A DNA stretch of 64,000 nt from Heptranchias perlo (Eukaryota): NCBI RefSeq assembly GCF_035084215.1, contig NC_090327.1:103726001-103790000 (forward strand), given 5' to 3'. This document shows positions 6,005 to 62,396 of this stretch, piece after piece (position 1 is the first letter of the stretch; the number at the start of each line of letters is the position of its first letter). Under the pieces are notes generated by a model. The model searched no databases. It worked only from the letters and a program-made list of their open reading frames with translations, and was not told the DNA's origin. Position numbers and translations under genes: made by a program.

Positions 6005-7705
6005 AAATGAGAGGAAAGCAGTAGTCAGCTGCCCAAGCAGAGACACTGTGTTCTCATAAAGCCAAACCTTGGATGAAGATTTCCCCTGTGTGTTATGTAC
6101 ATCAACATTGGAAACCCATTTATAAAGAACAGGTTTATAATTTCATTACACAAAGTGCACAGATGAAATCTCTGTCCATGTATTTGTGTCACAAGGCTCC
6201 ACCTTCTCCAATTCTATTATCCATGAAAATATGATGGTTACAATTTTGATTTAACAATTTCCCAGATGTTCCTCGTGGTCAACACAAAGAAATGCTCCTG
6301 TAAGCTTGCCAGTATAAAGTGTGATCTTATACGTACAATATCTGGAACTGTAACAATGCCCGGAGGATGAACTGTAATTTACTCACTGGAATTGACACAA
6401 GCCCTCTTGTGTTCTACTAGTTTTGAGAGAGCAGTAGATCATGTGTTTTTGACCATAAACCACAGCTCAGTCCAGATCCGTGGAGCCTTTGCATGCACAT
6501 CTATTCATGAACTGTGGCATAGTGGAACAGGAAGAACTGAAGAATGAGCAGAAAGCTGCTAGTTTGGGCATGGTGCCCTCAATTAACCCCTATCCTGAAA
6601 GACATTCTGTAGGACATCCCCCCGCCTCCTCCCTCCACCCCCCACCCCACCATCATAAGGACTTAGTTACTTGAGTTCAAGTTTCCTAGACATATTTCAT
6701 TCAACAAACAAGAACTCCAAGGTCAGCTGGTTGGTTTTTACACAGAACAAAATCAGCTCCAACAGCCTCCAGGCCTGTAACATTCTGCCACATGTTTGAG
6801 ATGACAGAGTAACCAATCAAAACAGATGAGGTGACCGATCCCCTATGGCAATTCCAGCTCGAGTCTCTCTCAACCTAAATGAACCGAGTCTGCGGTAAGC
6901 AAACTTAGTGGTGGCACAGAACTTCATGCAATTGAAGGCCAGAGTGCCTGATTCACAGCCCCCAGGATGATAAGCTAAAATTATGCAGACCACAAATCAG
7001 GCACACTAATCTCAGTGCATGAATTACTGACAGGTAAGCCTAAAGCTCTGTATTGTAAAATTTACCCCATAGTCTTTATGATTTGATATATGACAGATGC
7101 ACCAAATCTCCCGATCTGCCATATTTATTTAAAGGGGCCATTATTATAATCCCCCATCCAACACCTGCATTCTGTTGGTAACAAACATCTCAAATTCTCC
7201 AGAACTTGAACTCTTTCACTGGCCTTAAATGTTGAGTCCAAGATTATTGTCCAGTAATAAAATTCCCACCAGTGACAGTTAAACCATTAGAACCAGATCA
7301 TAATGATTACTTCTCACGATCCAAGTCACCTCTAGCTCACACATGGAAGGTTAAAAGGGATTCTACGCTCCTGTATAAAGGCTTTATGAGCTTCAACAGT
7401 TGAGTAACATGTAGGTTATGCTATCCCACTACTTTACACAGACTCTTGCTCTTCAGTTTCTTCATTGGATGGAGTTAGGGTACATCCATGGAACAGGCAG
7501 AAGCCCTGCTCTGCTCTAGAACTGCCGCCAAAAGAGGCCCCCAACCCAATGGAATTTCTGGGCTGGTGCCTTCAGAAATGACAAAAAGATATAAGCTGTC
7601 AAATATCAGAAAATACTGGTGTGCTAAAATATTAAGAGGTGCATTACAAGCTATAAAAACCCGAAGCCATTGTCTAAATAACACCAAGTACAGGCAGCCA
7701 GGTAC

Positions 7706-10700
7706 TGCGGTCATCTCCCTCCAAAACAGGTATACCGTTTTGGATACTGCTGGGGGAGATGGCTCACCAGGGGAAGGTGACAGCGGCCAGGTTCATGGCA
7801 CCGTGGCTGGCTCTGCTGCACAGGAGGGCAGGAAAAAAGAGTGGCAGAGCTATAGTGATAGGGGACTCGATTGTAAGGGGAATAGACAGGCGTTTCTGCG
7901 GACGCAACCGAGACTCCAGGATGGTATGTTGCCTCCCTGGTGCAAGGGTCAAGGATGTCTCGGAGCGGCTGCAGGACATTCTGGAGGGGGAGGGTGAACA
8001 GCCAGTTGTCGTGGTGCATATAGGCACCAACGATATAGGTAAAAAACAGGATGAGGTCCTACAAGCTGAATTTAGGAAGTTAGGAGTTAAACTAAAAAGT
8101 AGGACCTCAAAGGTAGTAATCTCAGGATTGCTACCAGTGCCACGGGCTAGTCAGAGTAGGAATGACAGGATAGCTAGGATGAATACGTGGCTTGAGAGAT
8201 GGTGCAAGAGGGAGGGATTGTATAAATTGGACAGTCTACATCTGGGCAGGACTGGAACCAATGTCCTAGGGGGAGTGTTTGCTAGTGCTGTTGGGGAGGG
8301 TTTAAACTAATGTGGCAGGGGGATGGGAACCGATGCAGGAAGTCAGTGGGAAGTAAAGTGGTGACAGAAACAAAAGGCAGTAAGGGAGAGTGTACAAAAC
8401 ATGACCGGACAGATGGTCTGAGAAAGCAGGGCAAAGACCAAGGGAAGTCTAGATTAAACTGCATTTATTTCAATGCAAGAAGTCTGATGGGCAAGGCAGA
8501 TGAACTCAGGGCATGGATGGGTACATGGGACTGGGATGTTATAGCTATTACTGAAACATGGCTAAGGGAGGGGCAGGACTGGCAGCTCAATGTTCCAGGG
8601 TACAGATGCTATAGGAAAGATAGAGCAGGAGGTAAGAGAGGAGGGGGAGTTGCGTTCTTGATTAGGGAGAACATCACAGCAGTAGTGAGAGGGGATATAT
8701 CCGAGGGTTCGCCCACTGAGTCTATATGGGTAGAACTGAAAAATAAGAAGGGAGAGATCACTTTGATAGGATTGTACGACAGACCCCCAAATAGTCAACG
8801 AGAAATTGAGGAGCCAATATGTAAGGAGATGACAGACAGCTGCAAGAAAAATAAGGTGGTAATAGTAGGGGACTTTAACTTTCCCAACATTGACTGGGAC
8901 AGCCATAGCATTAGGGGCTTGGATGGAGAGAAATTTGTTGAGTGTATTCAGGAGGAATTTCTCATTCAGTATGTGGATGGCCCGACTAGAGAGGGGGCAA
9001 AACTTGACCTCCTCTTGGGAAATAAGGAAGGGCAGGTGACAGAAGTGTTAGTGAGGGATCACTTTGGGACCAGTGATCATAATTCCATTAGTTTTAAGAT
9101 AGCTATGGAGAATGATAGGTCTGGCCCAAAAGTTAAAATTCTAAATTGGGGAAAGGCCAATTTTGATGGTATTAGACAGGAACTTTCAGAAGTTGATTGG
9201 GAGAGTCTGTTGGCAGGCAAAGGGACGTCTGGTAAGTGGGAGGCTTTCAAAAGTGTGTTAAATTAGGTTCAGGGTAAGCACATTCCTTATAAAGTGAAGG
9301 GCAAGGCTGGTAGAAGTAGGGAACCTTGGATGACTCGGGGGATTGAGGCCCTAGTCAAAAAGAAGAAGGAGGCATATAACATTAATAGGCAGCTGGGATC
9401 AAGTGGATCCCTTGAAGAGTATAGAGATTGCCGGAGTAGAGTTAAGAGAGAAATCAGGAGGGCAAAAAGGGGACATGAGATTGCTTTGCCAGATAAGGCA
9501 AAGGAGAATCCAAAGAGCTTCTACAAATACATAAAGGGCAAAAGAGTAAGAGAGAGTAGGGTCTCTTAAGGATCAACAAGGTCATCTATGTGCAGAACCA
9601 CAAGAGATGGGTGAGATCCTAAATGAATATTTCACATCGGTATTTACGGTTGAGAAAGGCATGGATGTTAGGGAACTTGGGGAAATAAATAGTGATGTCT
9701 TGAGGAGTGTACATATTACAGAGAGGGAGGTGCTGGAAGTCTTAACGCGCATCAAGGTAGATAAATCTCCAGGACCTGATGAAATGTATCCCAGGACGTT
9801 ATGGGAGGTTAGGGAGAAAATTGCGGGTCCCCTCGCAGAGATATTTGAATCATCGACAGCTACAGGTGAGGTGCCTGAAGATTGGAGGGTAGCAAATGTT
9901 GTGCCTTTGTTTAAGAAGGGCGGCAGGGAAAAGCCTGGGAACTACAGACCGGTGAGCCTGACATCTGTAGTGGATAAGTTGTTAGAGGGTATTCTGAGAG
10001 ACAGGATCGACAGGCATTTGGAGAGGCAGGGACTGATTAGGAACAGTCAGCATGGTTTTGTGAGAGGAAAATCATGTCTCACGAATTTGATTGAGTTTTT
10101 TGAAGGGGTAACCAAGATGATAGATGAGGGCTGTGCAGTAGACGTGGTCTACATGGACTTTAGCAAAGCCTTTGACAAGGTACCGCATGGTAGGTTGTTA
10201 CATAAGGTTAAATCTCACGGGATCCAAGGTGAGGTAGCCAATTGGATACAAAATTGGCTTGACGACAGAAGACAGAGGGTGGTTGTAGAGTGTTGTTTTT
10301 TGGACTGGAGGCCTGTGACCAGCGGTGTGCCTCAGGGATCGGTGCTGGGTCCGCTGTTATTTGTTATTTATATTAATGATTTGGATGAGAATTTAGGAGG
10401 CATGGTTAGTAAGTTTGCAGATGACACCAAGATTGGTGGCATTGTGGACAGTGAAGAAGGTTATCTAGGATTGCAACGGGATCTTGATAAATTGGGCCAG
10501 TGGGCCGATGAATGGCAGATGGAGTTTAATTTAGATAAATGTGAGGTGATGCATTTTGGTAGATCGAATCGGGCCAGGACCTACTCCGTTAATGGTAGGG
10601 CGTTGGGGAGAGTTATAGAACAAAGAGATCTAGGAGTACAGGTTCATAGCTCCTTGAAAGTGGAGTCACAGGTGGATAGGGTGGTGAAGAAGGCATTCGG

Positions 10701-11330
10701 CATGCTTGGTTTCATTGGTCAGAACATTGAATACAGGAGTTGGGATGTCTTGTTGAAGTTGTACAAGACATTAGTAAGGCCACACTTGGAATACTGTGTA
10801 CAGTTCTGGTCACCCTATTATAGAAAGGATATTATTAAACTAGAAAGAGTGCAGAAAAGATTTACTAGGATGCTACCGGGACTTGATGGTTTGACTTATA
10901 GGGAGAGGTTGGATAGACTGAGACTTTTTTCCCTGGAGAGTAGGAGGTTAAGGGATGATCTTATAGAAGTCTATAAAATAATGAGGGGCATAGATAAGGT
11001 AGATGGTCAAAATCTTTTCCCAAAGGTAGGGGAGTCTATAATGAGGGGGCATAGATTTAAGGTGAGAGGGGAGAGATACAAAAGGGTCCAGAGGGGCAAT
11101 TTTTTCACTCAAAGGGTGGTGAGTGTCTGGAACGAGCTGCCAGAGGCAGTAGAAGAGGCGGATACAATTTTGTCTTTTAAAAAGCATTTGGACAGTTACA
11201 TGGGTAAGATGGGTATCGAGGGATATGGGCCAAGTGCAGGCAATTGGGACTAGCTTAGTGGTATAAACTGGGCGACATGGACATGTTGGGCTGAAGGGCC
11301 TGTTTCCATGTTGTAAACTTCGATGATTCT
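7706..11330 (+). mobile_element. Long CR1 LINE (partial ORF1 with SGNH-esterase-like domain; ORF2 APE endonuclease + RT), inactive
   Basis: ORF1 motifs IVIGDSIVRG and VHIGTND. ORF2 APE motifs YFNARS, ITETW, GDFNFP and SDH; RT 9607-11253 (FADD). Stop at 9264-9266; frameshifts near 7835 and 9550. Candidate TSD aggtac at 7700-7705 and 11331-11336. Confidence 0.95.
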
Positions 11331-11359
11331 AGGTACCACTAATGAGAACTAAAGTAAAA

Positions 11360-14289: not shown

Positions 14290-17200
14290 TCTGAAGATAA
14301 AAGAAATAGGAGATGAGAGTAAAGATCAGGCCAAGGTAAGGAATAAGGGTAACAAACAGTCAGAGAACAATTACAGTTATAGAACATAAGTACAAAATGA
14401 CTGTTAAAAATAAAGCAAGGCGAACAATTATTGAAAACAAATTAAATTGCCTGTACAGCAATGTGCGCAGTGTCCAAAACAAAAGGGGGGATTTGGAGGC
14501 AATTCATAGCGAGGAGACAGATGTTGTAGGAATAACTGAGATATGGCTACACTAAGAACAGGTCTGGCATTTAATAATTGCAGAATATAATGTACTTAGA
14601 AAGGATAGGGAAAGAAGGGGGGAGGGGTAGCTGTATTAATTAGAGACAATATAGTGGCAGTAGAAAAAAGGAAATAGGTAACGTTAAGATAGAAACAGAA
14701 TCCATGTGGATTAAGACAAAGGATAAGAAGGGATCGATCACATTAATAGGTATATTCTACAGATCACCTAATAGTGGAAGGAAAGTGGAGGAAGAAATAT
14801 GTAGGCAAATCTATGAAAAGAGTAAAAAATGTCAAATAATAATCACGGGACATTTCAACTATCCCCAAATAAACTGGCAATAAGAGGTAGGGGAAGGGGA
14901 AAAGGGAATGGAGTTTTTACAGTGTGTACAGGACTCCTTTCTTACCCAGTATGTGAGAAGCCCAACAAGGGAGGATTCACTGCTGGATCTAGTAATGGGA
15001 AATGAACCAGAGCAGGTAAGCGTACGGGAACTTGTAGGCAATAGCAATTATAACATAATAAGATTTAAAATAATGATTGAGAAAGACATAAGTAAGACAA
15101 AGACCAAAGAAATAGATTGGAAAAAAGATAATTTTGAGGGGATGAGAATGGAACTAGGGCAGGTAAACTGGAAAAATTTTTCGAAAGACAAAGATAGAAC
15201 AGCAGTGGGAAATATTTAAAATGGTGATCAATAGAGTTCAGGAGAAATATATTCCTCTAAAAAACAAGAACAAACTATCCAATAATGAAACACCAGGGAT
15301 GAATAAAGAGATAAGGGTAAAATTGAAACTACAGAAAAAGGCATACACTAAATTCAAAGACAATAAAGGAGAGGATGACAAAAGGGAATATGAAGAGGTT
15401 AAGAAAGAAGTAAAACAAAACAATTAGGAAAGTAAAGAGGAACTACAAAATTAAATTATCAAAGAATATAAAAAGAAATAGTAAAGTATTCTACAGACAC
15501 ATAAATAACAAAAGGAAAATCAGGATGGGGATAGGGCCACTAAGGGATGCACAAGATAAACTCACAGGTAATGACAGCGAAATGGCAGAAATATTAAATA
15601 ATTACTTTGCCTCAGTATTTACCAGGGAGACTAACATGGTGGGCATAACATTAGAAGAAGAGATCAAAAAAGATATAAATGCATTTAAGATAGAAAAGGG
15701 GAGATAATTGATAAACTAATCAAACTTAGAGAGAATAAAACCCCTGGTCTGGATGGATTGCATCCACGCATATTAAAAGAAATTAGGGAGGAGATAGCAG
15801 AGGCACTATTACATATATAGGAAAATTCACTAGAAAAGGGAATAGTGCCAGAGGAATGGCGGACAGCTAATGTTATTCCTGTATTTAAAATGGGAGATAG
15901 AATAAGTCCAGCTTAATGTCGGTGGTAGGAAAGATAATGGAATCTTTACTCGAAGATGTAATAGGAAAACATCTAGAAACTGAAAATATAATAAAGAATA
16001 GTCAGCATGGATTTCAAAAGGGAAAGTCATGCTTGATCAACCTTACTGAATTCTTTGAAGAAGTAACAGAGTAGACAAGGATAATGTAGTAGATGTAATA
16101 TATTTGGATTTTAAAAAGGCCTTCGATAAGGTACCACATTATAAACTCATCACTAAGGTCAGAGCATGTGGAGTCAGGGGACAGGTAGCAGAACGGATAG
16201 CAAGCTGGCTACGAAACAGAAAACAGAGAGTAGGGGTTAAGGGTAGTTACTCAGTCGGCAAAAGGTGGGAAGTGGTGTTCCACAGGAATCGGTGCTGGGA
16301 CCACTGTTGTTCACAGTTTACATTAAAGATTTGGGTTCGGGAATCAGAAGTACAATTTCAAAATGTGCGGACATCACCAAAGTGGGGGGTATAGTTAATA
16401 CAAAGGAAGAATGCGTCAAAATGCAAGAAGACATTAATAAGCTTGCAGAATGGGCGTGTAATTGGCAAATTAATTTCAATATAGATAAGTGTGAGGTGGT
16501 GCATTTTGGTAGGAAGAATAATGAGGAGACATATTGCTTGGATAATAAGAGTCTAAATGGGATAGAGGAGCAAAGGGATCTAGGGGCACACAAATCACTA
16601 AAAGTAGTGATACAGGTTATAAGGCCATAAAAAAGGCACACCAAGCACTGGGGTTCATTTCTAGAGGGATAGAATTGAAAAGCAGAGATGTTATGTTAAA
16701 CTTGTGTGGAACCTTGGTTAGAGCACACTTGAAGTATTGTGCACAGTTCCGGTATCCATCTTATTAGAAGGATATGGAGGCTTGGAAAAGGTGCAGAAAA
16801 CATTCACAAGGATGATACCAGAACTGAGAGGATATACTTATCAGGAAAGGCTGGGGCTCTTTTAAGAACATAAGAACATAAGAAATAGGAGCAGGAGTGG
16901 GCCAATCGGCCTTCCAACGAGCCTGCTCCGCCATTTAATAAGATCATGGCTGATCTGATCCTAACCTCAAATCTAAATTCATGTCCAATTTCCTTCCCGC
17001 TCCCTGTAACCCCTAATTCCCTTTACTTCTAGGAAACTGTCTATTTCTGTTTTGAATTTATTCAATGATGTAGCTTCCACAGCTTCCTGGGGCAGCAAAT
17101 TCCACAGACCTACCACCCTCTGAGTGAAGAAGATTCCCCTCATCTCAGTTTTGAAGGAGCAGCCCCTTATTCTAAGATTATGCCCCCTAGTTCTAGTTTC

Positions 17201-17910
17201 ACCCATCCTTGGGAACATCCTCACCGCATCCACCCGATCAAGCCCCTTCACAATCTTATATGTTTCAATAAGATCGCCTCTTATTCTTCTGAACTCCAAT
17301 GAGTAGAGTCCCAATCTACTCAACCTCTCCTCATATGTCCGCCCCCTCATCCCCGGGATTAACCAAGTGAACCTTCTTTGTACTGCCTCGAGAGCAAGTA
17401 TGTCTTTTCTTAAGTATGGACACCAAAACTGTATGCAGTATTCCAGGTGCGGTCTCACCAATACCTTATATAACTGCAGCAATACCTCCCTGTTTTTATA
17501 TTCTATCCCCCTAGCAAAGAGAAGGCTGAGGGGTGACCTGATAAAGGTCTTTAAGATAATGAAAGGGTTTGATAGGGTAGACGTAGAGAAAATGTTTCCA
17601 CTTGTGGGAGAGTCCAAAACTAGAAGTCATAAATATAAGACAGTCACTAATAAATCCAAAAGGGAATTCAAGAGAAACGTCTTTACCCAAAGAGTGGTAA
17701 GAATGTGGAATACCCTACCACAAAGAGTTGAGGCGAATACCATAGATGCAACTAAGGGGAAGCTAGATAAGTACATGAAAGAGAAAGGAATAGGTGGGTA
17801 TGCTGATAGGGTTAGACGAAGTAGGGTGGGAGGAGGCTCGTATGGAGCATAAATGCCGGTATAGACCAGTTGGACCAAATGGCCTGTTTCTCTGCTGTAG
17901 ACTCAATGCA
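14290..17910 (+). mobile_element. Decayed CR1 LINE ORF2 (APE-RT), interrupted by an antisense CR1 insertion
   Basis: Fragmented ORFs 14908-16630 (EFLQCVQDSFLTQYV, DFKKAFDKVPH, GVPQESVLGP). Resumes at about 17511 (KRRLRGDLIKVFKIM) and continues to its 3' UTR. Confidence 0.9.
16863..17516 (-). mobile_element. Young 5'-truncated CR1 inserted antisense into an older CR1
   Basis: ORF 16979-17617(-) contains RPHLEYCIQFWCP...TRGH. (taagaaca)n tail at 16863. Near-identical to 21486-21930(+). Confidence 0.93.
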
Positions 17911-19369: not shown

Positions 19370-19573
19370 ACACAATATGTGCCAGTTAATGGGCTGTGTT
19401 CCAAAGCACCCAACCCCCCTGAATGATGGCTGAAGGAGAAGTGCTGCTGCCTGAGTTGAGTGCGAAATGGTTTGTTTCTTTGGTACTTCAAAGGACAGCA
19501 GTGCAACATGCCTGGCAGGAGATGGTGGCTGTAGGACCTGATGGAACAGATATGGAACAACTTCAAGGATCTT
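19370..19573 (+). mobile_element. Possible decayed Harbinger Myb/SANT-like gene fragment
   Basis: gcctggcaggagatg...aggacctgatggaacagatatggaacaacttcaaggatctt loosely resembles W.EVA...RTW.QCRKKFNDL of the copy at 30870. Confidence 0.3.
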
Positions 19574-20092
19574 AAAAAAGATATAGAAGCACTGGAGAAA
19601 GTGCAAAAAATATTTACAAGGATGATACCAGAACTAAGAGGATACAACTATCAGGAAAGACTGAACAGACTGGGGCTCTATTTTGGAGAAAAGAGAAGGC
19701 TGAGAGGTGACCTGATAGAGATCTTTAAGATTACGAAGGGGTTTTATAGGGTAGACATAGAGAAAATGTTTCCACTTGTGAGGGAGTCCAAAACTAGGGG
19801 CCATAAATACAAGATAGTCATTAATAAATCCTATAAGGAATTCAGGAGAAACATCTTTACTGAGAGAGTGGTGAGAATATGGAACTCGCTACCACATGGA
19901 GTGGTTGAGGCAAACAGCATAGATGCATTTAAGAGAAAGCTAGATAAGTACACGAGGGAGAAAAGAATAGAAGGATATACTGATTGGGACGAAGGTGGGA
20001 GGAGGCTCATGTGGAGCATAAACAACAGCATAGACCTGTTGGACCGAATGGCCTGTTTCTATGCTGTGAAATTTTATGTAATTCTATGTAAT
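19574..20092 (+). mobile_element. CR1 LINE 3' fragment
   Basis: ORF 19541-20134: KKDIEALEKVQKIFTRMIPEL...RRLRGDLIE...TRGH. Same family as 14290-17910. Confidence 0.9.
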
Positions 20093-20811
20093 GTGTCAAG
20101 GCACAGCTACCCAATAGTATCATACACCAGGTAGGCAGTCCAAGTATGCAGGCCACAAAATGTTGCCTGTCAACCTGCTACACACTTATTGCTTGCTCAT
20201 ACCAAGTCCTAAGACCTCGATACAAACCCATATGTGACAGATTAGAACTCTATCTTACTTAATTTCATAGAAATTTTGATGATATATTCTATATCTCAAC
20301 CACTCCTGTGAAAGGATGAGCTGGCATCAGAAATTAGGGAATTAAATGTTAAGGCACGTTTTATTCATTTAAATGGCTGAATATACCGACTCCTTGTCAT
20401 GGTCCTGTTTACTCTGTAAAATCAGGGTTGGATACTTCTCTATGACTGCCTTCAACATCTTATCAATGAAAAGATGGGCCTCCTGTGAGGTGCAAGTAGT
20501 CCTGCCAGGTTCCTGCAGCAGAATCTTTCCAAGAAGGCACCACCCACCAATAAGCAGCGGTTCATCTCGAAGAGTAGCTGACGCCTACACACATTTTTTC
20601 AGCAAGGAAAAGTTCAAAGAACATTTGAGGTTGGGATTCAAACTCGTACATCACCCGCCCCCAAGTCAGGAGTACCGGTCACTAACAGTGTACGACAAAG
20701 TTTAATTTTAGCTAAGAATGAACAAATAATATACTGTAGTTAATGGAACTAGACAAAAATGATTGTAATCTGATGGTTGAAAGAGATGACCACTGTCAAA
20801 TGATGACTCAC

Positions 20812-21485: not shown

Positions 21486-21930
21486 CACTCTACTCATTGG
21501 AGTTCAGAAGAATGAGAAGCGATCTTATTGAAACATATAAGATTGTGAAGGGGCTTGATCGGGTGGATGCGGTAAGGATGTTCCCAAGGATGGGTGAAAC
21601 TAGAACTAGGGGGCATAATCTTAGAATAAGGGGCTGCTCTTTCAAAACTGAGATGAGGAGAAACTTCTTCACTCAGAGGGTAGTAGGTCTGTGGAATTTG
21701 CTGCCCCAGGAAGCTGTGGAAGCTACATCATTAAATAAATTTAAAACAGAAATCGACAGTTTCCTAGAAGTAAAGGGAATTAGGGGTTACGGGGAGCGGG
21801 CAGGAAATTGGACATGAATTTAGATTTGAGGTTAGGATCAGATCAGCCATGATCTTATTGAATGGCGGAGCAGGCTCGAGGGGCCGATTGGCCTACTCCT
21901 GCTCCTATTTCTTATGTTCTTATGTTCTTA
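21486..21930 (+). mobile_element. Young 5'-truncated CR1 copy
   Basis: LYSLEFRRMRSDLIETYKIVKGLDRVD. (ttcttatg)n tail. Inverted near-identical partner at 16863-17310. Confidence 0.93.
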
Positions 21931-22139
21931 CACCCCCAAGGCAGTGGGCAGTAGTTCCAAATTTGCTTATATAATTAAGCAGCATATCAGGCAACTCCTT
22001 ACTGAGCAGCTTATTGGGATTTCCCCACTGCCCCCTCCCCTCTACCATCTCCCCCTCCTATTTCCCATCTCCCATTTTAGCAGCACCTGACCCTCCCCTA
22101 CTGAACAATATCTCACAGACTGGGAGGAGCAGAATAGCT

Positions 22140-25100
22140 CGAGTAGTAAAGGCAATGGGTTTCTGGAACATATTCAGGACAGTTTTCTGGAACAGTATGT
22201 TTTAGAACAAGAGATAAGGCCGTACTAGATATATGATGAGTAACGAGCCAGAATTAGTTAACAATCTGACTCTAAAGGAACATCTTGCAAACAGTGACCA
22301 TAACATCAATGAATTTGATATAAGGTTTGAGAGGGAGAAGCAAGAGTCACAAGTCTAGATTTTAAAATTGAGTAAGGCAACCTTCGAAGGGTGAGAAATA
22401 AATTGACCACAGTAAACTGAGCTGAGATGTTAAGGGGTAAACCCACAGACAACCAGTGAGAAGTATTCAAAGAAACATTCAGTATAATACAAAATCAGTA
22501 CATTACCCTAAAAAGCAAAACCTCCACTTGTGCATTTAAACAACCATGGTCAACAAACAGGGTAAAAGATTGGTCCCGAGCAGGACCGGCACCAATGTCC
22601 TCGCGGGGGTGTTTGCTAGTGCTGTTGGGGAAGGTTTAAACTAGAATGGCAGGGGGACGAGAACCTGAGCAGGGAGATAGAGGAGGGGGAAACGAGGATA
22701 GAAACAAAAGACAGAAAGGGAAGAAGCAATAGTGGAAGGCAGAGAAAACAAGGGCGAAAAACAAATAGGGCCATAGTGCAAAATAATACTAAGATGACAA
22801 GCAATCTTAAAAAGACAAGTCTAAAGGCATTGTGTCTTAATGCGATGAGCATTCGCAACAAGGTAGATGAATTAACAGCGCAGATAGATATTAACGGGTA
22901 TGATATAGTTGCGATTACGGAGACATGGCTGCAGGGTGAACAAGGATGGGAACTGAACATCCAGGGGTATTCAATATTTAGGAAGGACACGCAAAAAGGG
23001 AAAGGAGGTTGGGTAGCGCTGTTAGTAAAGGAAGAAATGAATGCAATAGTGAGGAAGGATATTGGCTCGAAAAATCACAATGTGGAATCTGTATGGGTGC
23101 AGCTAAGAAACACCAGGATGGGGGTTGTCTATAGGCCCCCAAACAGTAGTGGAGATGTAGGGGAGGGCATTAAACAGGAAATTAGAGACGCATGCAAGAA
23201 GGGTACAACTATAATCATGGGTGACTTTAATTTACATATAGATTGGTCAAACCAAATTAGCAATAATACTGTGAGGGAGGAATTCCTGGAGTGTGTACGT
23301 GATGGTTTTCTAGACCAATATGTTGAGGAACCAACTGGAGAACAGGCGATCCTAGACTGGGTATTGTGCAATGAGAAAGGATTAATTAACAATCTTGTTG
23401 TGCGGGGTCCCTTAGGGAAGAGCGACCATAACATGATAGAATTCCTCATTAAGATGGAGAGTGAATTGGTTGAATCCGAAACTTGGGTCCTGAATCTAAA
23501 TAAAGCAAATTACAAAAGATTGAGGTGCGAGTTGGCTATGATAAGATAGGAGAAATTTACTAAAAGGGATGACGGTGGATTGGCAATGGCTAATATTTAA
23601 AGAACGTGTGCAGGAATTACAACAATTATTCATTCCTGTCTGGCGCAAAAATAAAACAGGAAAGGTGGTTCAACCGTGGCTTACAAAAGAAATTAGGGAT
23701 AGTATTAGATCCAAAGAGGAGACATATAAAATTGCCAGAAAAAGCAGCAAGCCTGAGGATTGGGAGCAGTTCAGAATTCAGCAAAGGAGGACAAAGAGAT
23801 TGATTAAGAGGGGAAAAATAGAGTATGAGAGTAAACTAGCAGGGAACATAAAAACTGACTGTAAAAGCTTCTAGAAATATGTCAAGAGAAAAAGATTAGT
23901 GAAGACAAATGTAGGTCCCTTGCAGTCAGAAATGGGGGAAATTATAATGGGGAACAAAGAAATGGCAGAACAATTAAACACGTACTTTGCTTCTGTCTTC
24001 ACAAAGGAGGACACAAATAACCTGTCAGAAATGTTAGGGAACCAAGGGTCTAGTGAGAGGGAGGAACTGAAGGAAACCAGTATTAGTAAAAAAATAGTGC
24101 TCGGGAAATTAATGGGGCTAAAGGCTGACAAATCCCTAGGGCCTGATAATCTACATCCCAGAGTACTAAAGGAAGTGGCCCTGGAAATAATGGATGCATT
24201 GGTGCTCATCTTCCAAAATTCTACAGACTCTGGAACAGTTCCTACAGATTGGAGGGTGGCAAATGTAACCCAACTGTTTAAAAAAGGGAGTGAAAAAACA
24301 GGGAATTACAGACCAGTTAGCCTAATATCAGTAGTGTGGAAAATGCTAGAGTCTATTATAAAAGATGTGATAACAGAACACTTGGAGGTCGTTAACGGGA
24401 TTGGACAAAGTCAGCTTGAGTTTATGAAAGGGAAATCATGCTTAACAAATCTACTGGAGTTTTTTGAGGATGGGACATGGGATTGTGGGAATATACTGGC
24501 ATGGATTGAGAACTGGTTGACAGACAGGAAACAGAGAGTAGGAATAAACGGGTCTTTTTCTGGCTGGCAGGCAGTGACTAGTGGGCTATTCACAATATAT
24601 ATTAATGATTTGGATGAGGGAACTAGATGTAACATTTCCAAGTTTGCAGACGACACAAAGCTGGGGTGGAATGTGAGCTGTGAGGAGGATGCAAAGAGTC
24701 TCCAATGTGATTCATACAAGTTGGGTGAGTGGGCAAGAACATGGCAGATGCAGTATAACATGGATAAATGTGAGGTTATCCACTTTGGTTGTAAAAACAG
24801 AAAGACAGATTATTATCTGAATGGTGATAGATTGGGAAAAGGGGAGGTGCAACGAGACCTGGGTGTCCTTGTACACCAGTCGCTGAAAGCGAGCATTCAG
24901 GTGCAGCAAGCAGTTAGGAAGGCGAATGGTATGTTGGCCTTCATTGCAAGAGGATTTGAGTACAGGAGCAGGGATGTCTTACTGCAGTTATACAGGGCCT
25001 TGGTGAGACCATCTGGAGTATTGTGTGCAGTTTTGGTCTCCTTATCTGAGGAAGGATGTCCTTGCCATGGAGGGAGTGCAACGAAGGTTTACCAGACTGA

Positions 25101-27500
25101 TTCCTGGGATGGCAGGTCTGGCATATGAGGGGAGATTGGGTCGACTAGGCCCATATTCATTAGAGTTTAGAAGAATGAGAGGTGATCTCATTGAAACATA
25201 TAAAATTCTAACAGGACTAGACAGACTAGATGCAGGGAGGATGTTCCTGATGGCTGGGGAGTCCAGAACCAGGGGTCACAGTCTCAGGATACGGGGTATG
25301 CCATTTAGAACCGAGATGAGGGGAAATTTCTTCACTCGGAGGGTGGTGAACCTGTGAAATTCTCTACCACAGAAGGCAGTGGAGGCCAAGTCATTAGATG
25401 TATTCAAGAAGGAGATATTTATATTTCCTAATGCTGAAGGGATCAAGGGATATGGGGAAAAAGTGGGAACAGGGTACTGAATTGGATGATCAGCCATGAT
25501 CATTTTGAATGGCGGAGCAGGCCCGAAGGGCCGAATGGCCTACTCTTGCTCCTATTTTCTATTTTTCTATTCTTAAAGCCAAAAGAAAAGGTTTACATAA
25601 ATGTAAGGAAAAGTGGAAATCCAGGAGACCGGGAGAGCTATAAAAAATAACAAAGGGATACAAAGAAAGTAATAAGAGGTGCAAAAGGGAATATGCAAGA
25701 GATATCAGAGTTAACAGTAAAAGTTTTTTCTAAATTTATTGAACGAGAGTGGTAAGGAGGAACGTGGGCCCATTAAAGCTAGATGCAGGTTCGACTCTAA
25801 TAGATAATAAGGAAATGACAGACTTGTTAAATTAATATTTTGGATCCATTTTCACAGTAGAGGAAGAGGACAAAATACCAGCAGTACAAGGGAACCTAAA
25901 AATAAGTGAAAGGGAGCAATGTAGTGGATTTAATATAAGTTTAAAAAAATGATAATGGAGAAAATAATGGGTCTTAAGGTAAACAAATCTCCAGGACCTG
26001 ATGGTTTCCACCTTAAGGTATTAAAAGAAACAGGTGGGGTAATTGTAGAAGCATTAGACATAATTTTCCAAAGCTCTCTAGATCCGGGATTGTGCCTTTG
26101 GATTGATAAATAATGAAGTGACATTTGCAAGTTAAGACTGGAGAGAAAGAGAAACCAGGAAACTGCAAGCCTGTCAGTTTAACATCAGTGGTCAGGAAAT
26201 TACTGGAATCTATCTTCAGGGACAGAGTAACTAAGCATTTGAACAAGTATGAGCTGATCAAAGTGAGTCAGGATGGATTTGTGATGGGCAGGTCATCTAG
26301 TTGAATGTTTTGATGAGGTCACCAACAAGATGGTCAGGGGACTGTCTCCAGAAGATGTCTATTTGGACTTCCAGAAGACATTTGATTAAGTTCCACACAA
26401 GAGATTACTAGCAAAAATAAGAGTGCATGGAATTGGAGGTAACCTTTGAACATGGATTGATAATTGGTTGGGAGGTCGAGGACAGAGAGTAGGGATAAAG
26501 GGAAAGTACACAGATTGGAGGAATGTGACAAGTGGTGTTCCCCAGGGATCTGTTCTGGGGCCTTGGCTTTTCACCTTATATATCAATGACTTGGATGAAG
26601 GAATAGAGAGTGGTATATTAGCTTGCAGATAACATTAGAAGCAACAGTAAATTATGTAGATGGGAGCAGGACGTTACAAAGAGACATAGACTGATTAAAT
26701 GAGTGGGCAGATGGAGTTCAATGTGGGGAAATGTGAGGTAATCCATTTTGACTCCAAGAAAGGCAAATCAGAATATTTTCTTAATGGCGAGAGACTAGAA
26801 ACTGTGGAGGAGTAAAGGGCTTTGGGTGTCTCGGTACACAAATCACTAAAAAAAAAATCAAAAATGCCAATGTAATATTGTTTTTTATCTCAAGAGGGTT
26901 GGAATACAAAGGAGAAGAAGTTACGCTTCAGTTGTACACTGTCTTGGTCAGATCCTGTATTGCATTCAGTCCTGGGCACCGCATCTCAGGAAGGATATAT
27001 TGATCTTGGAGGGGGTCCAGCGCAGACCTACCAAAATCATACTTGGGCTTGAAGGGTTAAATTGTGAGGACATTTTGCATCAACTTGGGTTGTATTCCCT
27101 TGAGTTTAGAAGGTTGAGTGTTGTTCTACTTGAGGTGTTGAAAATGACAAAAGGATTTGATAAAGTAGATACAGAGAAGCTATTTCCTCTGGTGGGGGAG
27201 TCCAGAACAAGGGCACACAAAATTAGAGCTGGCCATTGAGCACTAAAATCAGGAACCTTTTTTTCCACAAAAGGGGTAAAGGGGTAGTGCGAATCCAGAA
27301 TTCTCTCCCTCAAAAGGCTGTGGATGCTGGGACAATTGGAGCTTTCAAGGCTGAGATAGATAGATTTTTATTAGACAAGGGTATCAAGGGATATGGATTA
27401 AAGGAGGGCAATGGAGTTGAGGTACAGATCAGCAATGATCTAATTAAATAGAGGAACAGACTCGAGGGGCTCAATGGTCTATTACTGTTCCAATGTTCCC
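22140..27500 (+). mobile_element. Old, heavily decayed CR1 ORF2 (22140-22574 and 25574-27500), split by a nested CR1
   Basis: APE/linker-like sequence ending ...ccatggtcaacaaacagggtaaaagat continues after 25573 as aaagccaaaagaaaagg.... RT remnants (ggtgttccccagggatctgttctgggg) and a CR1 3' UTR near 27400-27500. Confidence 0.8.
22575..25573 (+). mobile_element. CR1 LINE (ORF1 end, ORF2 APE-RT, 3' UTR) with internal deletions, nested in an older CR1
   Basis: ORF1 end RTGTNVLAGVFASAVGEGLN*. ORF2 22776-25357 has ITETW, GDFN, SDH and FADD, but lacks the LDFQKAFDKVPH and VPQGSVLGP segments present in sister copies. Confidence 0.93.
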
Positions 27501-30572: not shown

Positions 30573-33285
30573 GGGTTATATTGGATAACCCCCGAAAACG
30601 GGCGTTGGGATTGCGCTGCACGATTAACTCGTGCCCGTTCGTTGAGATGCAGGCAGCACGTAACATTTGTGCTGCCTGATGATTTCAATGATTGCTGCGT
30701 GCACCCAGGGCTCTCTGCGCTATTGATTGGCTGCACGCACCAGCAGGGGGCCCTGATGTCAGGAGTGGTTAGCACTACTTAAAGGCAGCCTGTACCTCTT
30801 AAAGGAGAGGTGCACCGTGGCTGCAGGAAGTCCAATGCAAAGTAAATCTGTGCTGGAATATAGTGAACAATGGCTGCGCCTGCACCAAGGTTCTCAGATC
30901 ATGCACTGGAGGCCTTGGTGGAAGAGGTGGACAGAAGGAGGGACATCCTATATCCGCAGGGGGACAAGAGGTCCTCCAGACATATGCTCAATAGGCAATG
31001 GGAGGAAGTAGCGGATGCATATGCCAGGAGCAGAGCGCCAAGAACATGGATACAGTGCAGGAAGAAGTTCAATGATTTGACACGAGTGGTCAAGGTGAGT
31101 GAGTTCAGCTTTCAAGTGGCATCTCTTACTAACTGCACCACGAGCTGCATCCACTGCTCCGCACTCCCCTCCTCACCCACATACCAACAAACTCTTTCAA
31201 TCAGTAATCAGCTCTTCAAATCAGATGCTTGATCTCACCCTCACACATTACCACTGTTGCAAGCCACACACCCACAACTCACAGATCACACATACTGGCA
31301 GCTATTCAACCATGACAGCCACATCACCCAAACATCTTGTCCTAACACCCATGGAGGAGATAATGCTGTCCATCATTGGAAGAGCCATCGCTGAGGCCGT
31401 GGCCACTGGCGACGCTGGAGGGATCGATGGTGAGGGTCTCTGCTTACCGAATCCTCCTTCTTGTTTCACACATCTCCCTTATCCCACAATCTTTTCTGAC
31501 TCACGTGCTGCAGATGGTGTGAGCAAATCTTACTTTCTCCTCTCCCCTCACCACAACTCAACCCGTGTCCCTTTGTCATTTCAGATACGCAAGAACTGGA
31601 ACCTATCCAATCAGGGGAGGCAGAGGAAGACGACGGTGATGATGAAGACACACGGTTACTCGATCTTACACTCACAGCAACCAGCTCAGAGACCGAAATT
31701 GCGCTTAGTTTAGAGGCTAGGATAGAGGAGGGATCTGCACGTGGTGAAACACCAGGCACAAGTGCACAGGAGCCAGGGTGGAGGGAACGGATATTGCAGG
31801 TGCCAGCTTGCCGGAGGGTGAGGTCACACACTAATTCTGCTGCCGAGGAGTCAGATGATGACTTCGATGGGCCAGGCTGCAGAAGAAGGCTGATGGGCGT
31901 ATACAACCAAATGTTTGGTGCACTGGAAAGCCTGCACACAATGTCAAGGGGCATGGAGGAGTCCAGCTCCAACTTGGCACAGGGCTTTGCACAGAGCTTG
32001 GAGCCATCCTTTCCCACATGGAACAGGTGGTCACATCCATCAGCACACCTGTGGAACCCACCGTGATACAACGTCTGATGGCCGATATCATAGCTTTCAT
32101 TGCAGCACAAACATCTGCCATCAAAGGTCTGCCTTGGAAGCTCAGACTGCTATCATGGCTCTGGGTATCACTGTTGAAAGGGGCTTCCAGGGCATCACAG
32201 CAGTCCAGCAATCTGTTCTCCAGCAGATCACCAGGATTGCTGAGACGCTGCTCCGGGAGAGTGGCAGTGGTGCCATAGAACAGGAACATGCTGTCCTCTC
32301 TCAGGATGACAGCATTCCCGATCCCACCCCTGCCACTCTGCCAGTGCCCTTGCTGTTGCCTGTCAGCCAGCCAGGCCAGACTGCTGCAGCCCAGGCCAAG
32401 ATGGTGCAGTCTGAAGCCGGGCCCTCTTGGCCCGGAGCTGCACGAGGTCGTCCTCCAAGGTCATCTGCACGTTCCTCAATTGAAGGCCAACAGCCTCCCA
32501 CCACCCATGCTCCAGGCACTGGGGATGCACCTTAGAGGAGCACTAGGAATGGTAAAGGGATAAGAATGTTAGGCACTAAGGGAATGCACAAGAGTGAATA
32601 GTATCATTTTGTTTGCATAATTTCATGTGTTAATTTATAAATTAGATTTGACTTTGCATTTGGTGGTGGTTTTTATTTCTGCGATGAGCTGAGGGAGGAA
32701 GCAATGTGTAATCATAAGGAGGACGATTTGATGGTCGCTGAGCGAGGAAAGGTGAGGAGTGTGGGACTGTTGGTGAATGGAGAGGTGTCGTTGAGGTTAT
32801 TGGTCTCACTCATTAATAATCTGATCACGCAGAGCCCTGGCAGAAAGGGCCTGTCTAGCCTTCCTGCCTCTTCCTCCACTTTTGATACATTTCCTCCTCC
32901 TCCTCTTCCACCTCTTCCTCCATCTCTTCCACCTTTTCCTCCTCTTCCTCTTGCTCAGGTTCTCGCCTGATAGGCGGTGGTAAGGGCTGTTCCCTCATAA
33001 TGGCGAGGTTCTGCAGCATGTAACATACAACAACAAATTTTGATAACCGTTAGCTGAGTACTGCAGGGCTCCTCCAGAGCGATGCAGGCAGCGGAAGTGT
33101 TACTTGAGGATGCCTATGATATGCAATTCTCTTAACTCAACTTCAGCGATGACCAGTGCATCCGACGGTTGCATTTCACTAAAGAGGTTGTGACTGAAAT
33201 TTGTCAACAACTGCAGCCTCAGAGGGCAAGGGCAGGTTTTCTTGTGGCTGTCAAGGTAATTGTGGCACTTAATTTTTTTTTTTGC
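30573..33285. mobile_element. Decayed Harbinger/PIF transposon: intron-containing Myb/SANT-like gene (+) convergent with a DDE transposase remnant
   Basis: ORF 30870 APRFSDHALEALVEEV...QWEEVA...RTWIQCRKKFNDLTRVVK|gtgagt (donor 31095). Later donor at 31430 and acceptor tttcag at 31584. Minus strand 32970-33120 gives IIGILK*HFRCLHRSGGALQYS and an acidic tail. Confidence 0.85.
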
Positions 33286-34338: not shown

Positions 34339-35503
34339 GTTCAGGAGCTCCTTGAAGCCTACGCATTTATACATCACAGAACAATACATGGTGTTTACAG
34401 ACTGCCCCTGCAACTGCCCGTTGCCAAGGCAATCACCGTGTTCAGACAGAGAGGTGTCACCTGCAGAACCCCCGAATACACATTCAACAAAAAAACAAAC
34501 AGGAAAAAAAAACAGAGAGAGGCAGAAACATCCGGAAGGCAGAGAAAGCCAGCAAATGACCCATTATATTAAAAACAGATAACATTTGTTCGCTGGTGGG
34601 GTAACGTGTAGCGTGACATGAACCCAAGATCCCGGTTGAGGCCGTCCTCATGGGTGCGGAACTTGGCTATCAATTTCTGCTCGACGATTTTGCGTTGTCG
34701 TGTGTCTCGAAGGCCGCCTTGGAGTACGCTTACCCGAAGGTCGGTGGATGAATGTCCATGACTGCTGAAGTGTTCCCCGACTGGGAGGGAACCCTCCTGT
34801 TTGGCGATTGTTGCGCGGTGTCCGTTCATCCGTTGTCGCAGCGTCTGCATGGTCTCGCCAATGTACCATGCTCTGGGGCATCCTTTCCTGCAACGTATGA
34901 GGTAGACAACGTTGGCCGAGTCACAGGAGTATGAACCATGCACCTGGTGGGTGGTGTCCTCTCGTGTGATGGTGGTATCTGTGTCGATGATCTGGCATGT
35001 CTTGCAGAGGTTACCGTGGCAGGGTTGTGTGGTGTCGTGGACGCTGTTCTCTTGAAAGCTAGGTAATTTGCTGCGAACGATGGTCTGTTTGAGGTTGGGT
35101 GGCTGTTTAAAGGCGAGTAGTGGAGGTGTGGGGATGGCCATAGCGAGGTGTTTGTCCTCATTGATGACATGTTGAAGGCTGCGGAGAACATGGCGTAGTT
35201 TCTCCGCTCCGGGGAAGTACTGGACGACAAAGGGTACTCTGTTGGTTGCGTCCCGTGTTGGTCTCCTGAGGAGGTCTATGCGATTTTTTGCTGTGGCCCG
35301 TCGGAACTGTCGATCGATGAGTCGAGCGTCATATCCCGTTCTTACTAGGGCGTCTTTCAGCGTCTGTAGGTGTCCATCGCGTTCACACCTCTCTGTCTGA
35401 ACACGGTGATTGCCTTGGCAACGGGCAGTTGCAGGGGCAGTCTGTAAACACCATGTATTGTTCTGTGATGTATAAATGCGTAGGCTTCAAGGAGCTCCTG
35501 AAC

Positions 35504-35544: not shown

Positions 35545-35630
35545 TTAAAATAAAATTGCTGGACTATAACTTGGTGTTGTAAAATTGTTTACAATTGTCA
35601 ACCCCAGTCCATCACCGGCATCTCCACATC

Positions 35631-48342: not shown

Positions 48343-49999
48343 GAGGTGAGAGTGACTGCCCTTGACATCAAGGCAGCATCTGACCGAGTGTGGCACCAAG
48401 GAGCCCTAGTAAAATTAAAGTCAATGGGAATCAGGGGGAAAACTCTCCAGTGGCTGGAGTCATACCTAGCACAAAGGAAGATGGTAGTGGTTGTTGGAGG
48501 CCAATCATCTCAGTCCCAGGATATCACTGCAGGAGTTCCATTCAGTTCCATTTGCAACTCTCTCTCTCTCTTTCACTTTCTCTCTCCCCTTTTTTTCTCT
48601 CCCTCTCTTCCCCTCTCTCTTTCTCACTCTGTTTCTCTCTCCCTTTCTCACTCGGTGTTTTCTCTCTTTCTCAGCTCTGTTTCTCTTCCCCCTGAATAAT
48701 TAATGTCCTCAGTGTTGCTCTTTATTTTGCTCTTGGTTTTCTTCTAGGAGTCATATTCTCCTTCTGGTATTTCCCACTCTCACTGCCTCATGTCCTCGCT
48801 GCTCTCTATTTCAAAGCTTCTTCATGTGTGCAATAGCCTGCATAACCAGTAATCAAAACCCTTCACATCCCACTGGCAGCAGATGCACTGCACTGCTGTC
48901 AAACTATCTCACGTCTGCACAAAAAACCTACAAACACAATTTGAAATGATTCAGAATTGAAAATAAAGCTTGCCAGTCCAAACAAAATATGTACATAAAG
49001 AAAGCAAAGAATTACAGGAAGTAACCCAATGCGGTATGTTTTCTATAATTAACTGTTTACCGTAAATATCTTTTACCAAGGTTTGCTGGCAGTCTGAATG
49101 GTTGGAAGCACAATATAATCTAATAACCTCATCACTCAAATAATGAAGCAGTCCGAGCCCAAATGCAACAAGACATGGACAACATTCAGGCTTGGGCTGA
49201 TAAGTGGCAAGTAACATTCGTGCCAGATAAGTGCCAGGCAATGACCATTTCCAACAAGAGAGAGTCTAACCACCTCCCCTTGACATTCAACGGCATTACC
49301 ATCGCCGCATCCCCCACCATCAACATCCTGGGGCTCACCATTGACCAGAAACTTAACTGGACCAGCAATATAAATACTGTAGCTACAAGGGCAGGTCAGA
49401 GGCTGGGTGTTCTGCAGCGAGTGACTCACCTCCTGACTCCCCAAAGCCTTTCCACCATCTACAAGGCACAAGTCAGGAGTGTGATGGAATACTCTCCACT
49501 TGCCTGGATGAGTGCAGCTCCAACAACACTCAAGAAGCTCGACACCATCCAGGACAAAGCAGCCCACTTGATTGGCACCCCATCCACCACCCTAAACATT
49601 CACTCCCTTCACCACCGGCGCACAGTGGCTGCAGTGTGTACCATCCACAGGATGCACTGCAGCAACTCACCAAGGTTTCCTCGACAGCACCTCCCAAACC
49701 CGCAACCTCTACCACATAGAAGGACAAGAGCAGCAGGCATATGGGAACACCACCACCTGCACGTTCCCCTCCAAGTCACACACCATCCCGACTTGGAAAT
49801 ATATTGCCGTTCCTTCATCGTCGCTGGGTCAAAATCCTGGAACTCCCTTCCTAACAGTACTGTGGGAGAATCTTCACCACACGGACTGCAGCGGTTCAAG
49901 AAGGCGGCTCATCACCACCTTCTCAAGGGCAATTAGGGATGGGCAATAAATGCCAGCCTCGCCAACAATATCCACATCCCATGAACGAATACAAAAAAA
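48343..49999 (+). mobile_element. CR1/L2-group LINE of a different lineage (RT 3' half and 3' UTR), split by an inverted templated insertion
   Basis: 48346: RVTALDIKAASDRVWHQG...ITAGVP. 49163: MQQDMDNIQAWADKWQVTF...YKAQVRSVMEY. Ends gaacgaatacaaaaaaa. Confidence 0.88.
48558..49136 (-). repeat. About 580-bp inverted duplicate of 50669-51241
   Basis: Base-by-base reverse-complement match with few substitutions and small indels in the CT/GA-rich end. Confidence 0.93.
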
Positions 50000-61414: not shown

Positions 61415-62396
61415 TGGTGCTTAGGGCCCAGCTATTCACAATATATATCAATGATTTGGATGAGGGAACCAAATGTAATATTTCCAAGTTTGCTGATGAC
61501 ACAAAACTAGGTGGGACTGTGAGTTATCAGGAGGATGCAAAGCGGCTTCAAGGCGATTTAGACAAGTTGAGTGAGTGGGTAAATACAGGGCAGATGCAGC
61601 ATATTGTGGATAAATGAGAAGATATCCACTTCAGAAGGAAAAACAGAAAGGCAGAGTATTATTTAAATGGTGATAGATTGGGAAATGTTGATGTACAAAG
61701 GGACCTGGGTGTCCTTGTACACCAGTCACTCAAAGCAAACATGCAGGTGCAGCAAGCAGTTAGGAAGGCAAATGGTATGTTGACCTTCATTGCAAGAGCA
61801 AGGATGTCTTACTGCAGTTATACAGGCCCTTGGTGAGACCACACCTGGAGTATTGTGTGCAGTTTTGGTCTCCTTACCTAAGAAAGGATACACTTGCCAT
61901 AGAGAGAGTGCAGCGAAGGTTCACCAGACTGATTCCTGGGATTGCAGGACTGTCGTATGAGGAGAGATTGGGTCAACTCGGCCTGTATTCACTAAAGTTT
62001 AGAAGAATGAGAGGGGATCTCATTGAAACATATAAAATTCTGACAGGGCTAGACAGGCTGGGTGCAGGGAGGATGTTTCCCCTGGCTGGGGGGTCCAGAA
62101 CGAGGGGTCACAGTCTCAGGATACGGGGTAGAACATTTAGGACTGAGATGAGGAGAAATTTCTTCACTCAGAGGGTAGTGAACATATGGAATTCTCTACC
62201 ACAGAAGGCTGTGGAGGCCAAGTCACTGAATATGTTTAAGAAGGAGCTAGACAGAATTCTAGACACAAAAGGGGTATGGGGAGAGCGCGGGAATATGGTA
62301 TTGAGATAGAGGATCAGCCATGAATATATTGAATGGCGGAGCAGGCTCAAAGGGCCGAATGGCCTACTCCTGCTCCTGTTTTCTATGTTTCTATGT
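61415..62396 (+). mobile_element. CR1 LINE 5'-truncated RT and 3' UTR
   Basis: [12 protein letters not shown]...FADDTKL; RPHLEYCVQFWSP; (tttctatg)n tail. Confidence 0.92.

Follow-up and report, generated by a model that had tools for sequence, protein, structure and literature searches.

A conserved slippery heptamer at the ORF1/ORF2 junction of CR1 retrotransposons suggests programmed -1 frameshifting

We analysed a 64,000-nt stretch of the Heptranchias perlo genome (RefSeq contig NC_090327.1, positions 103,726,001 to 103,790,000 of the forward strand; hereafter the window), which contains two copies of CR1, a retrotransposon without long terminal repeats (non-LTR). In both copies, open reading frame 1 (ORF1), encoding an esterase, ends in the slippery heptamer U_UUA_AAC directly followed by a stop codon, and the -1 frame runs into ORF2, which encodes an APE endonuclease and a reverse transcriptase (RT). 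The initial annotation of the window had proposed that such elements make an ORF1-ORF2 fusion by programmed -1 frameshifting. From the conservation of the heptamer, the open -1 frame and the families that lack an AUG for ORF2, we infer that CR1 elements with an esterase ORF1 express ORF2 mainly as this fusion, with a probability that we put at roughly 0.82.

By this mechanism, most ribosomes would finish ORF1 at ...L-N-stop, while in a minority the tRNAs paired with UUA (tRNA-Leu) and AAC (tRNA-Asn) would shift back by a single base onto UUU AAA, and reading would go on with CUA, giving the junction motif L-N/L-x-W-Q-G in the window families. The predicted product is an esterase-linker-APE-RT protein of ~1,290 aa (316 + 975 - 2), and the presumed slip would fix the ORF1p : RT ratio in a gag-pol-like manner. 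The most speculative step is a pause that might arise from a G-tract 11-20 nt downstream, acting as a G-quadruplex or a protein-binding site, together with the adjacent stop.

The ORF1/ORF2 junction and its conservation

By the features tested, which did not include an RT tree with named CR1 and L2 references, the elements are CR1 with an esterase ORF1. The SGNH esterase of ORF1 is recognized by Pfam (Lipase_GDSL_2) and its profile matches 4C1B, an 'ORF1-encoded protein' and its best solved relative, at E 2e-47; full-length family ORF1s also carry an N-terminal zinc-finger-like motif (CxxC...CxxC), which is lost from the truncated window copies. ORF2 contains APE and RT domains (Pfam), and a PDB sequence search of the -1 frame returned only matches at E 0.3, which were not used. 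The 3' ends of both copies fold at about -30 kcal/mol and have no poly(A), and a 3' tail with a hairpin and short repeats is typical of CR1. Within the CR1 group, poly(A) is described as unique to Zenon (PMC13343379). We assigned the elements to CR1 rather than L2 because chondrichthyan L2 is described as lacking ORF1 (PMC13343379) and because of the named relatives of their ORF1.

As initially annotated, ORF1 ends GGT TTA AAC TAA in copy 1, with TTTAAAC in the X_XXY_YYZ phase, and GGT TTA AAC TAG in copy 2, and the -1 frames (FKLMWQGDG... and FKLEWQGDE..., respectively) stay open as far as the APE domain, which Pfam recognizes as Exo_endo_phos (Table 1). Also present as described were the TAATG overlap of copy 1, an out-of-frame ATG at 22646 and an in-frame ATG at codon 53 in copy 2, and a motif common to both copies that begins at the sixth base after the heptamer and occurs twice in the window, where 0.02 occurrences are expected. 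TTTAAAC occurs 17 times in the window (both strands) and is followed by a stop in this way only at these 2 junctions; as 0.8 heptamer-stop combinations are expected per window by composition, the signal lies in position and phase and not in the word. In the window copies, the -1 frame is closed by a stop 18 nt before the heptamer and holds no AUG between the two, so that the ORF2 frame is not fed by any upstream start. The site had been called conserved in two divergent families; both junctions are real, but they are not independent, with 51 of 60 upstream bases identical and 80% identity between the C-terminal parts of the ORF1 proteins, so that the two window junctions alone would carry little weight. 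Likewise, the label 'coronavirus-type' suits the heptamer but not its surroundings, where no pseudoknot or hairpin was predicted downstream.

Two DNA and four protein searches of the 3.25-Gb genome yielded 155 loci, of which 154 were anchored by their flanks (all except L234) and, after one duplicate was dropped, 153 were retained. The exact heptamer was present in 149 of these copies, across six families. Relative to the family majority, the heptamer diverged at 4 of 1071 sites, compared with 286 of 12674 upstream and 314 of 14922 downstream; when only A/T sites were counted, the corresponding figures were 4/918, 99/6920 and 163/9768. Young families do not carry the synonymous heptamer changes that the initial annotation had named as refuting frameshifting. 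In contigs of four public sequencing runs, other families keep the block as far as 21 nt beyond the heptamer before diverging, seen in all four contig sets as loose ends at L189:2453-2454, and the heptamer was hit by 0 of the 40 differences listed.

The families of this genome group differently in the ORF1 (esterase) and APE trees, several rows of the latter being partial or frameshifted, so that the junction can travel along with a swapped ORF1 cassette; this suggests that ORF1 cassettes were exchanged between families together with the junction. Some family-5 linkers contain an in-frame second copy of the post-junction block (L229, L231, L240, L246 and L252), and this duplication and the tree conflict may be taken as signs of recombination at the junction.

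Among 228 ORF1 proteins, the esterase end was reached in 186, and 102 of these 186 complete C-termini end in LN, including named entries from coelacanth, the turtles Pelodiscus, Chrysemys and Gopherus, Xenopus, rays and sharks. Clustering at 70% gave 122 ORF1 clusters, of which 45 end in LN, and the residue before it is compatible with an NNU codon in 45/45, against a background of 83%. Thirteen clusters end in GN, preceded in 13/13 by a residue compatible with NNG (background 78%), and 2 clusters end in KN. These GN-type ends, (Q/S/A/V)GN, and KN-type ends, (S/A)KN, occur in distant ORF1s (P0117, P0123, P0125, P0126, P0128, P0135, P0140, P0167, P0171, P0175; P0153, P0220, P0227), others of which end in FFR or FFH. 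Judged from the protein ends only, they are compatible with the heptamers G_GGA_AAC and A_AAA_AAC; searches of viral and genome contigs for the DNA of GN- and KN-ending ORF1s gave none or bacterial esterases, and P0184, an ORF1 query not of the LN type, had no match in the H. perlo genome at E 1e-30. A search for longer proteins as natural fusions gave three matches, among them the ray gene models P0026 and P0229, which cross the junction in the -1 frame; as automated models of single copies, they were not used as support. The records of three CR1 ORF1s (P0006, P0071 and P0102) give as source a bacterium, a flatworm and a contamination-flagged contig; they probably contain vertebrate DNA.

As a source of DNA from other lineages, we used 80 metagenome loci. 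Heptamer and stop were found at the ORF1 end in 8 of the 80, where 5 were open into APE, 1 had a broken linker and 2 had no APE; in two more, L054 and L095, they lie behind a copy-specific frameshift. L055-L076 are probably amniote-like, and L052 is probably from an invertebrate. When 14 representatives (six families of this genome and eight loci; ORF1 identity of 22-88% among the pairs listed) were aligned by codon, Leu was TTA in 14/14 and Asn was AAC in 14/14, where the background use was 26 TTA among 201 Leu and 34 AAC among 73 Asn codons. The base before TTA was T in 13 of the 14 lineages, under Gly, Ala, His and Cys codons. Among 23 other conserved degenerate columns, a single codon was kept in only 1, and changes at four-fold sites approach saturation in distant pairs. 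The exception, L052, has G_UUA_AAC ahead of an 829-codon APE-RT frame, in line with the GUU deviation tolerated in equine arteritis virus (PMC3542737).

Among the 80 metagenome loci, a further 21, which form 10 clusters at 75%, carry APE in the ORF1 frame after a single stop, which is TGA in 20 of the 21, TGA-C in 15 and TGA-CTA in 9. The other loci had no ORF1 end (17), no APE (15) or were broken or otherwise arranged (19). Readthrough is known in the contexts UGA-CUA and UGA-C (PMC3542737), and these long interspersed nuclear elements (LINEs) with an esterase ORF1 (among L063 and L067-L126) are candidates for stop-codon readthrough; 17 of the 21 also carry a linker Met, which weakens the case for readthrough. 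One branch (89/88) splits the -1 group from the in-frame group in the esterase tree, and the APE tree does not separate them cleanly. With these in-frame, single-TGA relatives, the fusion looks like a conserved product.

Routes into ORF2

TAATG was found in 25 of 30 family-1 loci, and two family-1 copies without its AUG still have ORF2 open for 984 and 960 codons. In family 2, Met is at codon 53 in 17 of 20 loci. These start codons had been raised as caveats in the initial annotation, and they are real but specific to their families. We examined AUG retention in a larger set, of which 197 of 225 loci were anchored and 125 were open to the APE motif; this set was left out of the heptamer tally because its anchor pattern resembles the heptamer. 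An AUG was not generally retained: 64 of the 125 open copies had no Met before the first-motif Asn of APE, namely 36/38 in family 4, 12/15 in family 5, 6/11 in family 3, 3/28 in family 1, 3/20 in a mixed family-2/5 cluster and 4/13 in minor groups, and L051 likewise has none. An AUG that overlaps or adjoins the stop in the ORF2 frame was present in 28/31 family-1 copies of the larger set and in L055, and in 0/31 of a further group outside family 1; within 10 codons of the slip site, an AUG was found in 0/43 copies of family 4, 0/29 of family 3 and 1/25 of family 5. In families 2, 3, 3b, 4 and 5, the -1 frame begins with 9 codons that include neither AUG nor a near-cognate start. In L189 and L190 (family 4), ORF1 is open over 316 aa and the -1 frame over 975 codons from the heptamer; Met first appears in the -1 frame at residue 145, whereas the Pfam APE match begins at 47, so that an AUG start would remove about 100 residues of the domain. 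The linker from heptamer to APE has 33-131 codons overall (45, 55, 63-73, 85-86, 92 and 122-131 in copies open in the -1 frame). It is free of stops in the -1 frame of 14 of 15 representatives, and both other frames have stops in 15/15.

Several points weigh against frameshifting. The loci of this genome are the top-scoring matches and not a random sample, and the lineages share ancestry, so that their counts are not independent and the 14 show long persistence under RNA-level constraint, not 14 origins. Of the 197 anchored copies in the larger set, 72 are not open to the APE motif (it lies in a different frame in 36, a stop intervenes in 13 and 23 lack it), which we read as decay. Families 1, 2 and 3b, as well as L052, L055 and L058, have an in-frame AUG ahead of APE. 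No hairpin or pseudoknot was predicted after the heptamer, folds being weak in the window copies and the 15 representatives; z-scores of the minimum free energy of the downstream 100 nt were -2.45 to +0.91 and exceeded -1.3 in 14 of the 15. With z near 0 in 14/15, the downstream block could not be upheld as a conventional structured stimulator. The stimulator of canonical -1 signals is a structure located 5-9 nt downstream (PMC3542737), and with none predicted there the junction is not, so far as folding can tell, in the canonical structure-stimulated class. Long-range partners were also rejected: the best downstream duplexes fell at unrelated sites and none was shared, and a partner about 640 nt upstream (window ~7707-7723) paired as well when swapped as with its cognate (permutation p 0.82). 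Among 9 own-genome representatives, 8 placed the latter within the top 1-3% of windows, as did L054, and its pairing with the G-tract would give a 10-bp helix in families 1, 2, 4 and 5; the stretch around it is Pro-rich and C-rich, the changes seen in these four families are transitions on one side only, and L051, L052 and L056 lack the partner. We rejected this duplex as a general stimulator, although it may act in single lineages. Finally, the two-ORF LINEs that have been tested, SART1 and human L1, use reinitiation, and reviews treat LINE ORF2 as reinitiated (PMC2881922, PMC5972666), with L1 ORF2 described as expressed independently of AUG (PMC5009743).

On these precedents, ORF2 might be translated by termination-reinitiation, either at UAAUG as in SART1 or without an AUG as in L1, the conserved block being the reinitiation signal. 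We consider this unlikely, although the family-specific AUGs of families 1 and 2 and the lack of a structured frameshift stimulator would suit it, as would a TGGGA upstream of the stop in 8/8 own-genome representatives, L051 and L052. For a termination-reinitiation motif of this kind (TURBS), a distance of about 40-90 nt ahead of the stop is expected; the TGGGA lies at -55/-81 in families 3 and 3b, at -81 in L051 and at -96 or further elsewhere, and is absent in L055, L056, L058, L062 and L076. Moreover, families 3, 4 and 5 have virtually no AUG near the slip site and the AUG-less families have no near-cognate codon near the stop, the family-1 copies without the AUG keep a long ORF2, and reinitiation leaves the fixed UUA, AAC and preceding U unexplained. 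In family 1, it may act beside frameshifting.

A joining of ORF1 and ORF2 in the RNA, by a splice acceptor near the G-tract, by editing or by polymerase slippage that adds a base, is very improbable. G-runs can act in splicing, an AG stands a few bases past the stop in many families and rare forms would escape contigs; however, there is no polypyrimidine tract, the base ahead of the AG differs among lineages, GT..AG was found at 0 of the 3 joints among those listed in the four contig sets, T3A3 is too short for polymerase slippage and such joining would not fix the tRNA-pairing phase. Least probable of all is that L-N-stop is kept for the protein itself, as the near invariance of L and N in the vertebrate alignment might suggest, with the heptamer a by-product and the ORF2 start unrelated, for the synonymous positions are fixed and the codon alignment largely refutes it, LN tracks the stop and not the domain end where tail lengths differ, and 77 of the 122 esterase ORF1 clusters end otherwise.

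For programmed -1 frameshifting, the G-tract is the candidate non-canonical stimulator. G occupies the 11th and 12th bases after the heptamer in 13/13 lineages and the 13th to 15th in 12/13, with a second run at the 18th and 19th. Gly codons in the tract are GGG in 25 of 32 cases, compared with 89 of 283 further along ORF2, and the 25-nt segment that holds the tract is in the top 4% of G-skew relative to downstream sequence in 15/15 representatives. When the downstream region was folded as the initial annotation had suggested, no stable fold emerged but a G-quadruplex was placed by ViennaRNA in 8 of the 15. G-quadruplexes stimulate frameshifting in synthetic constructs, and natural use was anticipated with none known in 2016 (PMC5009743). 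In family 3 (L131-L160 and L273-L342), the G-tract has become a long homopolymer that differs in length between copies and often gives rise to frameshifts in dead ones.

A wider reading, which we hold tentatively and at somewhat less than even odds, is that esterase-ORF1 LINEs across animals make RT only as a fusion, the recoding route having been switched as in gag-pol. It would be a -1 shift at U_UUA_AAC in vertebrate CR1 (perhaps at G_GGA_AAC and A_AAA_AAC in ORF1s ending in QGN and SKN) and UGA-C readthrough elsewhere, with the CR1 slip driven by an unstructured G-tract, through a G-quadruplex or a G-run protein, and kept since the origin of jawed vertebrates.

Layout of the window

Both CR1 copies in the window are truncated and dead (Table 1). 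Copy 1 matches the family copy L197 at 95.9% over its length, and 30 family-1 loci in the genome match it at 98-100%. Its ORF1 has suffered a 45-nt deletion at ~8220 and one extra base at ~7838, where intact relatives have 315-316 aa, and its ORF2 frame is broken at ~9550 by a 5-nt loss. Copy 2, which family-2 loci match at 95-96%, begins just 60 nt upstream of its heptamer and was seemingly inserted into an older element.

Table 1. Coordinates of CR1 features in the window
Feature	Position	Strand	Remarks
CR1 copy 1 (family 1)	7705..11331	+	5'-truncated, inactivated by indels and stops
Copy 1 ORF1 3' part, SGNH/GDSL esterase, end ...G-L-N-stop	7705..8310	+	Pfam Lipase_GDSL_2, E 1e-10
Slippery heptamer U_UUA_AAC, copy 1	8301..8307	+	
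ORF1 stop TAA overlapping in-frame ATG (TAATG)	8308..8312	+	Family-1-specific, absent in families 2-5
Conserved G-tract, copy 1, candidate non-canonical stimulator	8313..8331	+	G5 at 8318-8322, then GGG
Copy 1 -1 frame: 55-codon linker, then APE endonuclease	8301..9266	+	Pfam Exo_endo_phos; copy-specific stop ends frame
Copy 1 ORF2 reverse transcriptase part	9550..11253	+	Pfam RVT_1, E 2e-34
Copy 1 3' untranslated region	11254..11331	+	Predicted hairpin, no poly(A)
CR1 copy 2 (family 2)	22575..25570	+	5'-truncated, internal deletions; matched by L194 and L196
Slippery heptamer U_UUA_AAC, copy 2	22635..22641	+	Then TAG at 22642-22644; 20/20 family-2 loci
Conserved G-tract, copy 2	22647..22665	+	
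Copy 2 -1 frame: ~66-codon linker with ATG at 22794, then APE	22635..23549	+	
Broken reverse transcriptase, copy 2	23875..25128	+	Pfam RVT_1

More truncated CR1-like pieces of ORF2 or 3' ends were found at 2-895, 16979-17852, 19535-20134, 21498-21923, 22100-22574, 25580-26500 and 61764-62309. The window also contains an open 918-codon RT frame at 35583-38339 (+; Pfam RVT_1), which may be Penelope-like with a GIY-YIG-type end, and just upstream of it an inverted duplicate of its 3' part at 34569-35486 (-). Clustered overlapping open frames with no Pfam match, presumably resembling remnants of Harbinger-type transposons, were found at 31099-32535 and 52661-54001, and a 269-codon frame at 49127-49936 (+), also with no Pfam match, is like the C-terminal part of another LINE ORF2.

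Comparison with known systems

The CR1 group is described as the dominant retrotransposon in most vertebrate species. We found neither -1 frameshifting for CR1 nor a statement on how CR1 ORF2 is translated in the literature searched; Repbase notes, supplements, Haas 1997, Kajikawa 1997 and Kapitonov & Jurka 2003 were outside its scope, and an earlier mention is possible. The CR1 case is absent from the passages on non-LTR elements in PMC5009743, the word 'frameshift' is absent from the main text of PMC3905857, PMC4120745 and PMC13343379 (a 2026 survey of the CR1 group), and the portions searched of PMC4255032, PMC5006619, PMC2734521, PMC8665684 and PMC8915115 hold no statement on CR1 frameshifting. 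If CR1 does shift frame, its active enzyme would be an esterase-APE-RT fusion, annotation of ORF2 from the first Met would be truncated in many families, and counts of intact copies as well as engineered CR1 constructs would have to include the junction. The ORF1p : RT stoichiometry and the sensitivity to host anti-frameshift factors would become testable, and the stimulator would be a natural one of the G-quadruplex type or a mirror of the protein-bound motif in the virus that causes porcine reproductive and respiratory syndrome (PRRSV).

Vertebrate CR1 subgroup 7, with ORF1 of type IVB, has the same zinc-finger and esterase ORF1 and an APE-RT ORF2 (PMC4120745, PMC13343379). Among LINEs with bicistronic RNA, SART1 and human L1 are the reference cases, and family 1 has a UAAUG overlap like that of SART1; however, SART1 needs a downstream structure (PMC5972666), whereas none is predicted in CR1 and most CR1 families lack that AUG. 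For groups 1-3 of the Paramecium LINEs, recoding for ORF2 (+1 shift, reinitiation or readthrough) was proposed from consensus sequences (PMC5405496), but these belong to a ciliate clade and are +1 or in-frame, without a -1 heptamer. A close LINE parallel is in the two-ORF, APE-type elements TRE5-A and TRE3-A of Dictyostelium, whose ORF2, according to a review, depends on a -1 frameshift (PMC5911963); they belong to another LINE group with another ORF1, whereas the CR1 signal is a fixed arrangement of heptamer, stop and G-tract across vertebrate lineages.

The same U_UUA_AAC is used by infectious bronchitis virus and other coronaviruses and is among the most shift-prone heptamers on mammalian ribosomes (PMC5009743), and a minor fusion of structural protein and polymerase follows the same logic as in retroviral gag-pol (PMC3542737). 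CR1 differs from these viral sites in having no predicted pseudoknot or stem-loop and in its host element, a non-LTR retrotransposon. In PRRSV nsp2, frameshifting is stimulated by a protein complex on CCCANCUCC, a short, unstructured motif dominated by a single base and lying ~11 nt 3' of the site (PMC5009743). The G5 of CR1 begins at the 11th base after the heptamer, at a spacing like that of the PRRSV motif, which we offer as an analogy only: the PRRSV motif is C-rich and the CR1 motif G-rich, and protein binding is known for PRRSV whereas the CR1 motif is known from sequence alone.

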